Of a stretch of DNA of 64,000 bases, positions 3,951-54,450 are shown one piece after another. Source of the DNA: Promethearchaeota archaeon. Its GTDB lineage: Archaea > Asgardarchaeota > Lokiarchaeia > Sigyniarchaeales > SOKP01. The notes beneath the pieces were generated by a model. The model searched no databases and was not told the DNA's origin. It saw only the letters and a list, made by a program, of their open reading frames with translations. The DNA lies in the NCBI GenBank assembly GCA_019058445.1, contig JAHPZA010000002.1, positions 1-64,000 of the forward strand, written 5' to 3'. The position numbers were made by a program, and so were the translations under genes. How positions within the stretch are numbered: the first letter of the stretch is position 1; every line of letters begins with the position of its first letter.

Positions 3951-4616
3951 TTACCTAAACACTACCTCTCTTTGATGTCCTGATTCACTCCAGTCTCTTG
4001 GCTCTCTTAATTTAGTATATAAGTCTAATTTCCCCAATTCCTTCAAACGATTGTAAATCAAAACCCAACCGCAATCTCTTTCATAATTTCCGACTTCGCA
4101 TTTTCCATTGACCATTCCCCCGCAAGGACCATTCATCAGCCCTTTAGCACAGGTTGCGATTGGACATATCCCTCCTGTTTCGTTTAAAAGACAATCACCA
4201 CAGCCCTGACATCGCATATAAAATCGTCCGATTCTTTCAGTCATACCCATAAATTGGGTGTCATTAGCAGTTATGACGGGCTTTTTTGGATATTTATTAC
4301 TTAATACTTCAACTATCGATTGAGTACCAAGACCACAGCTTGCCGTCAAAATTGCGTCTGCTTCAGCGATTTCATTGTCCATCTTTCTTAGATCTTTTTT
4401 CATCACTCGATTATCGCACACTTCTTCTATTACAGCCCCAACAACTATGTCATATCCTTTTTCCTCTAAGATATCTGACCAATATTTCAAACCTTCTGTA
4501 CCGCCAGTTTGGCATAAAGCGGCACATGTTCCACAGGATATAATAGCGATCTTGTTTACGTCTTTCAATGCTTCTAATACTTCAGGAACTTCCTTCTTCG
4601 TTGTTATTACAACCAA
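3951..4616 (-). CDS. metV: MetV, Fe-S/Zn subunit of MetVF-type MTHFR (copy 1)
   Basis: CGTCAALC, CQGCGDC, GICPIATCAKGLMNGPCGG, CEV..RDCGW (MTHFR_C domain); TTG start preceded by GGTGA SD. Confidence 0.9.
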   Translation of the reverse strand: MVVITTKKEVPEVLEALKDVNKIAIISCGTCAALCQTGGTEGLKYWSDILEEKGYDIVVGAVIEEVCDNRVMKKDLRKMDNEIAEADAILTASCGLGTQSIVEVLSNKYPKKPVITANDTQFMGMTERIGRFYMRCQGCGDCLLNETGGICPIATCAKGLMNGPCGGMVNGKCEVGNYERDCGWVLIYNRLKELGKLDLYTKLREPRDWSESGHQREVVFR

Positions 4617-7941: not shown

Positions 7942-8595
7942 TTGATATACCAATTTTCTGAAAATGAAGTAAAAGATTTCTATAATATCTTTTATAGATA
8001 TCATTCTGCCCTATGGCCGATGATAATCATAACTTATATTTTAGGGATTATAATCATAATTCTAGCAGTAAGGAAATCAGATAATTCAAGCAAAATAATT
8101 TCAGCGATCTTGGCGTTCTTATGGATATGGGTAGGTATTTTTTTCTTTTTAATCTATGGTTTATCGGTAAACCCACAATTTTATCTTGTCTCCGGGATTC
8201 TTTTTATCATTCAATCCATTTTATTCCTATATTATGGTGTTTTTAAAGAAAGAATTTACTTCAGAGTTGAAAAAGAAATTTATTCTTTCATAGGAATACT
8301 AATAATAATATATGCGCTAATTATTTATCCATTGATTGAAATCTTCACAGGTCATGTGTATCCCGCAGCCCCCATCTTTGGAATGGATCCTTGCCCCGTT
8401 TGTATATTTACATTTGGAGTTTTATTATTAACAGATAAAAAGATTCCCCTAAGATTAGTGATAATCCCATTTCTTTGGTCGCTATCAGGAGTTTTGGCTG
8501 TTGTTGGATATCATGTATGGGCAGATATTGGAGAATTAGTCTCAGGCATTCTTGGACTGATTTTAATTATTTATCGCAATAAAAAAATAGAATGA
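7942..8595 (+). CDS. DUF6064-like integral membrane protein
   Basis: Polytopic hydrophobic ORF with F..Y...WP.., LW.WVG..F, FG..PCP..IFTFG.L, IP..W motifs. Confidence 0.65.
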   Translation: MIYQFSENEVKDFYNIFYRYHSALWPMIIITYILGIIIIILAVRKSDNSSKIISAILAFLWIWVGIFFFLIYGLSVNPQFYLVSGILFIIQSILFLYYGVFKERIYFRVEKEIYSFIGILIIIYALIIYPLIEIFTGHVYPAAPIFGMDPCPVCIFTFGVLLLTDKKIPLRLVIIPFLWSLSGVLAVVGYHVWADIGELVSGILGLILIIYRNKKIE

Positions 8596-48448: not shown

Positions 48449-50209
48449 ATGGTAAAGGGTAAAAACAAAATAAGTAGAAGATCATTTATCCTCATTATAC
48501 CTATTATTTTATTAGGTGTTTTCTCATCCCTTTTACTTATAAATAGAAGTCAAGGGTACTTATATTATGAACGAATCGAATTTGAATATAATAATACAAC
48601 TTTCCATGCAAATTTATATCATCCTTCTAAAGATATTGATTTCCAAGACAAACATCCATTAGTGATTTATATTCATGGATTTAGCAGTCAAAAAGATATG
48701 GATTCGCGTGTTCCTTTAGAACTTACCAAAAGGGGATTCTATGTCGCATGCATTGATATGCCTGGTCATGGAGAAAATGCGAATTCAGACTTGTTAGATA
48801 CTGATGAAGATGGTGAATTCGTAACAACACAAATGTGTTCAAAATTATTAGATAAGATTGAAAATTTACGGGCTTATTCTCAGATTGATGAAGATCAAAT
48901 TGGTTTATTAGGACATTCTTATGGGGGTTATGTTGCTCTTATGAATGGTCTATATGATGATCGTTTCGAAGTTACGATAACATGGGCAGGAGTTGCGGAT
49001 GTAATGAGACCATATAAGGAATATGGAAAATTAGGTTATGAGATTGATAAGGATGATAAAGAATTACTCCACGAAAATAATCCTGTAGAAGTTATGAACA
49101 ATGGTTCGAAACAACCGGAAAATTTATTCTTGATAGTCCATAAGGAAGATAGTGGCCAGTATAAATATAATAAAAGGTTACAAGATCTAACTGATTGTAA
49201 ATGGGAAGCGTTTGATTATCCTGTAAGTGGTACAGGGGAAGCACACCTTCTATTACATAAAAATGTTATAATTAAAACTATAAATTGGTTTGAAAACAAG
49301 TTTTTTGATTCAACATCTAAGAACGGGCCCATTCAACTCTCATCTCAATATAATTTCTATCTAATCATTTTGACATTACTAGCAAGTTTGTTAACGATTT
49401 TTTCGCTAATGATTTATTTTTCAAAATATCTTCTAAAAAACGAGCTGATTAGTATTCGATCCCCCCCCAAAAAGAGTATTTCGACAGAATCCAAAATGCC
49501 GGAAAGTTCAGTTGATTCAGATAAGAAAAAGAATATGATAATTTTTTCTATATCAATTCCTATTTTTATAAGTATATGGATTTTATGTGCTTTTTTATTC
49601 GGAGTTTATGCTTCATGGTTTCTTTTTGCCCCCTGCATTACAATCTTAGTTTATTTTTTATTTTTTAGGAGAATTTTACATAAAAAGGGTCAAGACCGAG
49701 AGAATAAAGGAAGCCTTAAAGATTCTTTTAAATCTGAAATCTCAATGAGATCGGCTGTGTATGGTGCTTTTTGTTCTGCGCTGTTCTTGGGATTTTATTT
49801 TGCTTTTGCACTATTTTACCCTTTTTTGTTGTATTATCCTCATAGTATTCTTGCTGTTATTCTTACGTTAATGTTTTTTCCGGTATATTTATCTACGGAG
49901 ATCTTATACAGAAAAATTTTATACCCTTCATCGCAATTTATAAAATCTAAAAAAATGCGAACGTGCATTATTAGCATTATAACGATATTTATACAGCTTT
50001 TTCTGATGGTTTATTATTTAATGTTTTTACCATTTCCAGTTTCCATTGTTGTTACTATTGCATTTATGTTTTCATCACTAATGAATGGAATTATATATCA
50101 TAAAACGGAAAAAATTGGGCCAACACTTTTAAATACTTTAATAATTATGAGTATATTTGTTGGCGCTTCATGGTCTTTCATTTTAAACATTCTTTCGATG
50201 GTATCTTAA
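48449..50209 (+). CDS. Membrane-anchored alpha/beta hydrolase with C-terminal multi-TM domain (copy 1)
   Basis: N-terminal TM; IHGFSS, DMPGHGE, nucleophile GHSYGG, EAH; ~7-8 C-terminal TM helices. Confidence 0.85.
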   Translation: MVKGKNKISRRSFILIIPIILLGVFSSLLLINRSQGYLYYERIEFEYNNTTFHANLYHPSKDIDFQDKHPLVIYIHGFSSQKDMDSRVPLELTKRGFYVACIDMPGHGENANSDLLDTDEDGEFVTTQMCSKLLDKIENLRAYSQIDEDQIGLLGHSYGGYVALMNGLYDDRFEVTITWAGVADVMRPYKEYGKLGYEIDKDDKELLHENNPVEVMNNGSKQPENLFLIVHKEDSGQYKYNKRLQDLTDCKWEAFDYPVSGTGEAHLLLHKNVIIKTINWFENKFFDSTSKNGPIQLSSQYNFYLIILTLLASLLTIFSLMIYFSKYLLKNELISIRSPPKKSISTESKMPESSVDSDKKKNMIIFSISIPIFISIWILCAFLFGVYASWFLFAPCITILVYFLFFRRILHKKGQDRENKGSLKDSFKSEISMRSAVYGAFCSALFLGFYFAFALFYPFLLYYPHSILAVILTLMFFPVYLSTEILYRKILYPSSQFIKSKKMRTCIISIITIFIQLFLMVYYLMFLPFPVSIVVTIAFMFSSLMNGIIYHKTEKIGPTLLNTLIIMSIFVGASWSFILNILSMVS

Positions 50210-52037: not shown

Positions 52038-53798
52038 ATGGTAAATGGGATAAAAAAAATGCGAAAGCGTTCACTTTTATTATTAATGCCTATTTTATTA
52101 TTAGGCTCATTTTTATCGCTTTTAGCAATTTCCCGAAGCCAGAGTTATTTATATTATGAACGAATTGAATTTAACTATGATGGTACAACATACCACGCTA
52201 ATTTATACCATCCTACTAAAAAGATTGATTTTCAGGATAAACACCCGCTAGTTATTCATATTCATGGATTTAGTAGTCAGAAAGATACGGATTTTCGTGG
52301 TCCTTTAGAACTTACCAAGAGGGGATTCTATGTCGCATCTGTTGATATGCCAGGTCATGGAGAAAGTGCGAATTCACACTTATTAAATACTGATGAAAAT
52401 GGTGAATTAGTAACGACTCAACTGTGTTCAAAATTACTGGATAAGATTGAAAAGTTACGCATTTATTCAAAAATTGATGAAGACCAAATAGGTTTATTAG
52501 GGGAATCTTTTGGGGGTTATGTTGCCCTTATGAATGGTCTTTATGATGATCGATTTAAAGTTACGATAACATGGTCGGCAGTTACGGATGTATTGAAAAT
52601 ATTTAAATTATATGAGGCACCAGGTTACGAGTTTGATAAAGATGATAAAGAATTACTAAAAGAAAATAATCCTGTAGATGTTATGAACAACGGTTCAAAA
52701 CAACCGGATAATTTGTTTTTGATTGTCCATAAAAAAGATTACTTTTATAAATATAATAAAGAGTTACAAAATCTAACTGATTGTAAATGGGAAGTGTTTG
52801 ATTATCCTGTTAGTAGTGTGAGTGAAGCACACGCTATTCTACATAAAAATCTCGTAATTAAAACTATAAATTGGTTTGAAAACAAATTTTTCGATTCAAC
52901 ATCTAAGAACGGCCCAATTCAGCTCTCATATGAATATAATTTCTATCTAATCATTTTGACATTACTAGCAAGTTTGTTAACGATATTTTCGCTAATGATT
53001 TATTTCTCAAAATATCTTCTAAAAAACGAGCTGATTAATATTCAAGCCCCACCCAAAAAGAGTATTGCGACAGAATCCAAAACACCAGAAAGTTCATACA
53101 GTTTAGATAAGAAAAAGAACATCATAATTTTTTCTCTATCAATTCCAATTTTTCTAAGTATATGGATTTTAAGCACTTTATTCTTCGGATGGTGGGCTTC
53201 ATGGTTTCTCTATGCTCCCGCCATTATAATCTTAGTTTATTTTTTAGTTTTTAGAAAAATTTTACATAAAAAGGATCAAGACCAAGAGAAAAAATTTAGC
53301 CTTAAAGATTTTTTTAAATCAGAAATCTCAATAAGATCAATAGCATATGGTGCTTTTTGTTCTGCGCTATTCCTAGGATTTTATTTTGCCTTTGCGTTAT
53401 TTCAACCTTTTTTGTTGTTTTATCCTCACAACATTCTTGCTGTTATTCTATCGTTATGGTTTGTTCCGGTTTATTTATCAACGGAGATATTTTACAGAAA
53501 AATATTATATCCCTCATCATCATTCATAAAATCTAAAAAAACGCGGACCTGTATTATCAGTCTTATTACAATATTTATTCAATTGTTTCTGATGGTTTAT
53601 TATATAATGCTGTTTTTACCATTTAACATTTCCTTTGTTATTACTGTAGCATTTATGTTCTCATCACTAATGAATGGAATTATATATCATAAAACGGAAA
53701 AAATAGGGGCAACACTGTTAAATACTATTATTATTGTGAGTATCTTTGTTGGAGCTTCAGTGTCTTTCTTATTAAACATGTATTCGATGTTTTCTTAA
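52038..53798 (+). CDS. Membrane-anchored alpha/beta hydrolase (copy 2), close paralog of 48449-50209
   Basis: Same length (586 aa), long identical blocks; nucleophile elbow GESFGG. Confidence 0.85.
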   Translation: MVNGIKKMRKRSLLLLMPILLLGSFLSLLAISRSQSYLYYERIEFNYDGTTYHANLYHPTKKIDFQDKHPLVIHIHGFSSQKDTDFRGPLELTKRGFYVASVDMPGHGESANSHLLNTDENGELVTTQLCSKLLDKIEKLRIYSKIDEDQIGLLGESFGGYVALMNGLYDDRFKVTITWSAVTDVLKIFKLYEAPGYEFDKDDKELLKENNPVDVMNNGSKQPDNLFLIVHKKDYFYKYNKELQNLTDCKWEVFDYPVSSVSEAHAILHKNLVIKTINWFENKFFDSTSKNGPIQLSYEYNFYLIILTLLASLLTIFSLMIYFSKYLLKNELINIQAPPKKSIATESKTPESSYSLDKKKNIIIFSLSIPIFLSIWILSTLFFGWWASWFLYAPAIIILVYFLVFRKILHKKDQDQEKKFSLKDFFKSEISIRSIAYGAFCSALFLGFYFAFALFQPFLLFYPHNILAVILSLWFVPVYLSTEIFYRKILYPSSSFIKSKKTRTCIISLITIFIQLFLMVYYIMLFLPFNISFVITVAFMFSSLMNGIIYHKTEKIGATLLNTIIIVSIFVGASVSFLLNMYSMFS

Positions 53799-54110
53799 AG
53801 GATATAAGAATACTTATAAGAAATTAAGAACCAATAGTCTGTAATTATTTTTTTTATTCTAAAAATATTTTTTTAACTAATAGAAAATATCATTGTAATA
53901 AATATTAAAAATCTTTATTCAAGTTTATTTTTAGCAGTCTTTAGAGTTCCTAGAAGCCGGATTGTTTTATTAAAATTCTAATTACTCGCTCAATTTAAAT
54001 ACTACTTTATTTATCTAAAATTAAAAGAATTACTTATTGTAAAATAAAGGTGGTTAAAGAAAGAATTAATTTATATCAAAATGAATCAGCATTGGAACTC
54101 TATTTTTATC

Positions 54111-54301
54111 CTCAGAGGACTTCCCTCATTTGTGAATATTTACTCCCATATCGGGGGACATACAGCGAAAGCCCATCTGGCATAGTACCGGGATGATGAC
54201 CTTTCGGAATATGAAGTAGTCCGAAATGCCTTTCGGCTATCGGATAGGGGCTACCGGTTTTAGCCCTCATGAATAAGACGGCACCGACCGTAACCTTCAT
54301 G
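54111..54301. ncRNA. Putative structured non-coding RNA of unknown family
   Basis: 93/190 G+C (54111-54300) between very AT-rich flanks; several helices (TCCGA/TCGGA with inner GCC/GGC, GGGCTA/TAGCCC, ACGG/CCGT, ATGAAG/CTTCAT); TATA-like boxes on both sides. Confidence 0.65.
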
Positions 54302-54450
54302 TAAAAATTTTTTAGTAAAATTAGTTAATATTATTTAATAATTTTAATAAAAAAGATAACCTAATCAATTAAAATGGTTTAAATATAATTATATAAATTA
54401 AGAGTAAGTAAAATAGCAATTTCCATATAAAATTAAAAGCTGAAAATATT

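Follow-up and report, generated by a model that had tools for sequence, protein, structure and literature searches.

A GC-rich island upstream of aroC and its relatives

Given that a GC-rich island interrupts the AT-rich spacer upstream of aroC in this archaeal genome, we questioned whether the island is an orphan structured RNA, as the initial annotation of the locus had proposed from the sequence alone, or part of a larger and dispersed system. Within the window (the whole 64,000-nucleotide stretch that was analysed), 93 of the 190 positions between 54111 and 54300 are G or C, against a mean of 32% for the window and 20% and 13% for the flanks at 53800–54100 and 54313–54450, respectively, which bears out the compositional contrast first noted. 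An Rfam search, suggested at the outset, returned nothing for the GC island at the gathering score and nothing real at E ≤ 10; the sole permissive match (CRISPR-DR49, E = 7) lay in the AT-rich spacer and was judged to be chance. ARAGORN found no tRNA in the island.

Two well-known RNAs were also considered by name. A divergent SRP RNA was considered because the Rfam model Archaea_SRP found no SRP RNA in the source genome (G000), even at E ≤ 10. This identity was rejected, as two relatives (G002 and G012) hold the element plus an SRP RNA elsewhere and the island has no Rfam match. RNase P RNA was rejected on the same lack of a match and on the location of the genome's RNase P RNA at C3:7495–7803. 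The missing SRP RNA is likely an assembly gap. SRP RNAs of relatives scored 46–89 bits, every one under the 96.5-bit gathering score, and the Archaea_SRP model evidently fits this clade poorly.

The folding energy of the island was ordinary for its composition (z = −1.45 on the plus strand and −1.75 on the minus strand, neither significant). Thermodynamic stability was therefore dropped as proof of structure, and the case for structure has to rest on comparison with other sequences. A blastn search of the island against 60 relatives gave a handful of real matches, with different neighbouring genes each time. A covariance model (R1) built on 54211–54317 of the window scored 105 bits on the window copy and, searched across 151 Asgard genomes of the same class, recovered more than 100 copies in 37 of them, with at most 17 per genome and none in most genomes. 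One is a second match in the source genome (G000:C9:482873–482982). Relatives carry more than 100 copies and its own genome a second one, so the island cannot be called an orphan. Copy numbers rise in bursts (17 matches in G012, 15 in G138, 10 in G026 and 8 in G079), with zero in most genomes of the same family.

The initial annotation had preferred a free RNA to a leader of aroC, and this preference holds: an aroC leader or riboswitch is excluded by neighbours that differ in every genome and by a same-genus genome (G003) that has aroC without the element.

Compensatory changes define a structured RNA on the plus strand

We assessed how differences between copies fall on the proposed helices. 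Seven aligned copies contained compensatory changes, along with G-U pairs possible on the plus strand only. In the 3' domain (54208–54317), 92% of cells were paired and 12 of the 22 pairs carried double changes; none of 500 shuffles reached the observed value, and slid controls were 29–43% paired. With 38 copies, 82% of cells were paired overall and 31 pairs were doubly changed, with pairing of 90–96% in the scaffold helices and 68% in a right-end hairpin (15 pairs with double changes). A homologue search across Asgard genomes and a test of covariation had been put forward as checks; homologues and compensatory pairing were both found.

Several hairpins read from the single sequence gained support from compensatory changes in homologues: TCCGA/TCGGA with its inner GCC/GGC (54219–54245; helix 54219–54224/54240–54245, inner helix 54228–54230/54235–54237), GGGCTA/TAGCCC (54248–54266; helix 54248–54253/54261–54266), ACGG/CCGT (54278–54291; helix 54278–54281/54288–54291) and, further upstream, CTCCC/GGGGG (54143–54157), which was 94% paired with 2 double changes. 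A single-pair "helix 2" is G-C in six of the seven copies and G-U in the other. Other parts of the first fold gave way. The alignments do not support the proposed closing helix ATGAAG (54211)/CTTCAT (54295), which competes with a covarying helix between 54268–54273 (CATGAA) and 54296–54301, nor the proposed pseudoknot of CCGGT with ACCGG (54187), in which ACCGG sits in a variable stem that is absent from many copies. The CATC..GATG hairpin turned out to be part of a long variable stem (54160–54209), which some copies have, with complementary arms, and others lack. A candidate pseudoknot instead pairs loop GGTT (54256–54259) with the terminal AACC (54358–54361); this pairing is 97% kept and almost invariant, and it stays a candidate because a sole double change, in L066, compensates. 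The T run noted directly after the fold (54308–54313) forms the 5' side of the right-end hairpin; the feature itself extends to 54361. In the G057 and G061 copies, the sequence after 54307 is not conserved as a T run.

The strand, left ambiguous at first, is the plus strand: G-U pairs occur only there, a TATA-like box upstream is conserved and tnpB of full-length copies has the same orientation. The 62-aa ORF on the minus strand (54112–54300) is judged spurious. It matched no Pfam family, it runs antisense to the plus-strand RNA whose pairs need G-U, and it is not kept in homologues, where the corresponding frames span 18–46 aa with different ends; conservation of this protein had been named as the finding that would speak against an RNA.

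The scaffold is shared with tnpB and points to an IS607-type parent

The second copy in the source genome (C9:482873–482982) covers the end of an intact 425-aa ORF, namely its final ~43 codons, and ~50 nt past the stop. This ORF (C9:481726–483000) is a TnpB (OrfB_IS605, 9e-17; Cas12f1-like TNB domain, 7e-12; NCBIfam guided_TnpB, 1e-45). An intact TnpB (~425–433 aa) reads through the scaffold in ~14 of 40 inspected copies, the rest being gene-less or C-terminal fragments. Across 38 copies, homology breaks off sharply at GATAACC with few exceptions, the flanks beyond being unrelated, and gene-less and full-length copies have in common a left end of TCATC or TCATT preceded by ATA.

The type of the parent is indicated by locus L054 of G025, where a serine-recombinase ORF overlaps the start of tnpB (Resolvase, 6.5e-13; NCBIfam transpos_IS607, 6e-30), implying an IS607-type element. 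Its transpos_IS607 score of 104 bits falls just short of the 110-bit cut-off, a shortfall explained by truncation of the ORF at the end of the contig. The remaining full-length copies examined are tnpB-only. Membership of the IS200/IS605 family with its Y1 TnpA was rejected, since no HUH Y1 transposase (Y1_Tnp) was found in the source genome (92.6% complete) or beside the full-length copies examined; IS607 TnpA was likewise not found in the source genome at this completeness.

The source genome encodes one cognate TnpB (C9:481726–483000) and two to three further TnpB genes at 45–48% identity. The scaffold belonging to the C9 TnpB is only ~72–76% identical to that of the window and has a different inner hairpin. 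TnpB-carrying relatives are Promethearchaeota, Sifarchaeum and Borrarchaeum MAGs, from which the assignment to Asgard archaea is reasonable.

The C9 TnpB (L069 2854–4131, corresponding to G000:C9:481726–483000) and 11 orthologues carry Gly in place of the canonical RuvC-II Glu (motif ICLGxL). In the same 12 members the CxxC...CxxC zinc ribbon is absent, and the RuvC-I Asp and NADVN are kept. TnpB clades with a "rearranged" RuvC-II are held to be probably active (PMC10691335); the Asgard family resembles these clades, and its nuclease activity is assumed by analogy.

An empty site delimits a 472-bp gene-less element

In the same-genus genome G003 (contig C81), a left flank ending ...AGAAAATA is joined straight to (G)AATCAATTAAAATGG, and these junction sequences correspond to 53842–53889 and to 54362 onward in the window. 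The insert is therefore 53890–54361 (472 bp), and target duplication is absent. The nearest copy (L056, in G128) is 77% identical over ~480 nt and has the same limits. A global MAFFT alignment had placed the AT-rich left flank of G003 on the right-end hairpin; this placement was overruled by local alignment, in which that flank scored 56 against the left flank of the window and 20 against the right-end region.

The spacer between hydrolase gene and aroC in G003 (L080 ~1000–1480; G003:C81 ~8100–8590) is about as long as that of the window, and its content is unrelated, more GC-rich and coding-like in appearance. Beside the insertion site, the window carries two 586-aa alpha/beta-hydrolase (Peptidase_S9-like) genes (48449–50209 and 52038–53798) with an MFS transporter gene between them; the 3' parts of the pair are 84% identical in DNA, a local duplication.

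The element opens with a left end (53890–53945, inner limit approximate) that starts TCAT.. after ATA, as in other copies, and continues into an AT-rich subterminal region like the right-end hairpin; left-end and right-end regions cross-match in blastn. Further in, a conserved AAAGGTGG motif (54046–54053) and a TATA-like box, TTTATATC (54070–54077), keep their positions among gene-less copies, the box lying 11–14 nt before GCATTGG. Together, 54046–54077 may be read from sequence as a putative internal promoter. Gene-less copies (window, L039, L040 and L056) share an extended motif, AAAGGTGG(A/T)T.AAAGAAAG, ~20 nt before the TATA-like box. It is not conserved as a frame for translation, and it could be a binding site of a regulator or recombinase or be left over from the tnpA/tnpB junction.

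A 5' module specific to gene-less copies follows (54089–54210), which alignments resolve into GCATTGG, hairpins at 54115–54127 and 54143–54157, and the variable stem, the latter missing from the G026 and G079 copies. Derivation of this module from the tnpB interior was rejected, with nil similarity. The core scaffold (54211–54317), homologous to the last ~43 tnpB codons, contains the covarying helices described above. The old TnpB frame is stopped here by TAG at 54261–54263, where the TnpB-linked copy has CAG, and the changed base is still paired in its hairpin. The AT-rich right-end hairpin (54308–54354) is conserved in all copies, with compensated versions containing G and C in G057 and G061, and the terminal GATAACC occupies 54355–54361. 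By analogy with reRNA (PMC8612924), flanking DNA read past the right end (54362–54381) is the predicted guide segment. Every other match to this predicted guide in the source genome has at least 3 mismatches, which is about what a reversed-pattern control gave. All of these features lie on the plus strand. TnpB similarity is absent within 1.5 kb upstream of the scaffold, and we therefore file the element as a standalone omegaRNA variant, there being no tnpB in cis.

In ISDra2-type systems, the reRNA consists of the tnpB 3' end, the right end and a guide of ~16 nt from the flank (Karvelis et al. 2021, PMC8612924). Homology to the tnpB 3' end and to a right transposon end matches this definition of a TnpB reRNA or omegaRNA, and the family is co-linear with the tnpB 3' end and right end, has a scaffold ending at the element boundary and conserves its structure. 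As far as sequence comparison can tell, the structured GC island is almost certainly the scaffold of a TnpB omegaRNA on a 472-bp protein-less IS607-type derivative. Of the initial proposal of an undescribed structured RNA (ribozyme, scaffold or mobile-element-derived), the genuine structure and the mobile-element option stand; the RNA belongs to a class that has been described, and no sign of a ribozyme was seen.

Gene-less copies as candidate guide RNAs acting in trans

Gene-less copies of ~500 bp in G012 are ~90% identical and lie in different flanks, indicating that such elements move as units. The window element has both parent ends and no ORF, with dispersed copies and presence/absence polymorphism, as expected of a non-autonomous (MITE-like) mini-element. 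In the scaffold tree, the window copy falls in a clade (support 98/99) of 8 gene-less copies, each from a different genome, that span at least 5 genera, its closest relative being G128 at 85% identity. Across this clade, 90.8% of cells are paired, 12 pairs are double-changed and mean column identity is 65% (slid controls, 29–49%), figures that describe the clade and say nothing direct about the window copy itself. The kept pairing, together with unit movement in G012, favours a standalone omegaRNA over decaying scrap, and an omegaRNA element working in trans with TnpB is the best reading, which we hold to be probable. Expression and activity of this particular copy today are a matter of even chances.

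The history and mechanism that we propose run as follows. An IS607-type (TnpA serine recombinase plus TnpB) derivative inserted between the hydrolase gene and aroC. In full-length relatives, the RNA overlaps the last ~43 tnpB codons and runs through the right-end hairpin to GATAACC, and the ~16–20 flanking bases past GATAACC would serve as guide. The window copy has lost tnpB, keeps both ends and the scaffold, and has gained the 5' module behind a conserved TATA-like box. Plus-strand transcription would start at ~54100 and read through into the flank, and the RNA would be taken up in trans by a TnpB compatible with it, one cognate gene lying on another contig. TnpB would then be directed to the empty insertion site (the flank with its 5'-ATA-type motif), which would favour retention or re-copying, as in the retention model of TnpB (PMC8612924; 10.1101/2023.03.14.532601). 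ATA is a putative target-adjacent motif on the basis of flank conservation 5' of the left end only. The run of five to six T residues at 54308–54313, within the scaffold, could stop archaeal transcription short of the guide, and the window copy may be immobile now, given that searches of the source genome turned up neither type of TnpA.

The same observations raise the question of whether the window copy, with the same origin, is an inert relic that is neither mobilised nor a guide RNA and has merely inherited its structure. It is the single gene-less copy in a source genome where neither type of TnpA was found, its TnpB frame is broken, it contains the internal T run, and its nearest relative is just 77–85% identical, so the insertion is not recent. 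However, at such divergence neutral decay should have eroded the pairing and the box, and the gene-less clade instead holds 91% pairing, 12 compensated pairs at a mean column identity of 65% and a conserved promoter-like box. We consider a relic unlikely for this reason. Going beyond the omegaRNA reading in the other direction, the gene-less clade might form a long-lived guide-RNA lineage selected in its own right and exploited, beyond transposon retention, by the host or by the zinc-finger-less, RuvC-II-rearranged Asgard TnpB. To this we give little credence; if true, possible roles would include transcriptional control of neighbours such as aroC or, should the T run terminate transcription, that of a guide-less decoy titrating TnpB.

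A domesticated guide RNA, taken over by the host (for instance together with a TnpB-like protein) and regulating aroC or another target in the manner of TldR, has a precedent in TldR itself (PMC10705468), and the element does lie ~90 nt upstream of aroC, with a predicted guide that overlaps the aroC upstream region and a partner TnpB family whose RuvC-II site is non-canonical. It is nonetheless very improbable, as the neighbours are different in every genome, G003, of the same genus, has an empty site, the element is multi-copy and mobile in other genomes, and the predicted guide matches its own flank only. An independent ncRNA or ribozyme unrelated to transposons, or a small minus-strand protein, would suit the lack of an Rfam match and the open 62-aa frame, yet is scarcely credible in the face of an RNA directly homologous to tnpB coding sequence and a transposon end, a minus-strand ORF that is not conserved and G-U pairs that require the plus strand.

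Comparison with known guide-RNA and mini-element systems

The element is of a kind already described, a clean but ordinary example of an effector-less omegaRNA element. It resembles the ISDra2 reRNA (IS200/IS605–IS607, PMC8612924) in an RNA co-linear with the tnpB 3' end and right end, in a multi-hairpin scaffold with a flank-derived guide (predicted here), and in insertion beside a short motif without target duplication. Unlike ISDra2, the window family has a serine recombinase (IS607 type) as its associated transposase and lacks both sequence similarity to ISDra2 and an Rfam family, and the window copy lacks a tnpB in cis and brings an additional 5' module and a TATA-like box of its own. The RAGATH-18-derived reRNAs of IS607 TnpB (PMC11061315) likewise combine an IS607-type TnpB with a structured RNA at the right end, whereas the window scaffold is a different one that matches no Rfam family, RAGATH motifs included.

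In the account that PMC10691335 gives of Altae-Tran 2021, standalone omegaRNAs without effector and transposase act in trans. As described in that account, the OMEGA omegaRNA loci of Altae-Tran et al. 2021 share with the window element the absence of effector and transposase and the presence of an effector locus in the same genome; those loci were shown experimentally in bacteria, whereas the window element comes from an Asgard archaeon and its trans action is predicted.

The comparison bears on how such loci are read. What stood out as a GC-rich "orphan RNA" against the AT-rich background of an Asgard genome is explained here as transposon guide-RNA baggage, and screens for GC-island ncRNAs in such genomes will meet the same false lead repeatedly. 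Also documented is an omegaRNA scaffold family outside Rfam, with a covariation-backed structure, defined ends and an empty site. It is partnered by a clade of Asgard TnpB proteins whose catalytic site is non-canonical, and both may be of interest to cataloguers of OMEGA systems or compact editors.

MITE- and PATE-type derivatives of the IS200/IS605 family are non-autonomous elements mobilised in trans. The window element is like them in being short and protein-less, in keeping both parent ends and in belonging to a family that is multi-copy in some genomes; unlike them, it keeps a selected RNA scaffold besides the ends.

A shorter element occurs in G007. At L087 ~1500–1746 (G007:C84 ~4170–4416), a ~250-bp mini-element without scaffold has ends nearly identical to those of the window element, its right end being 98% identical over 40 nt, and transposon ends by themselves have apparently been propagated too.
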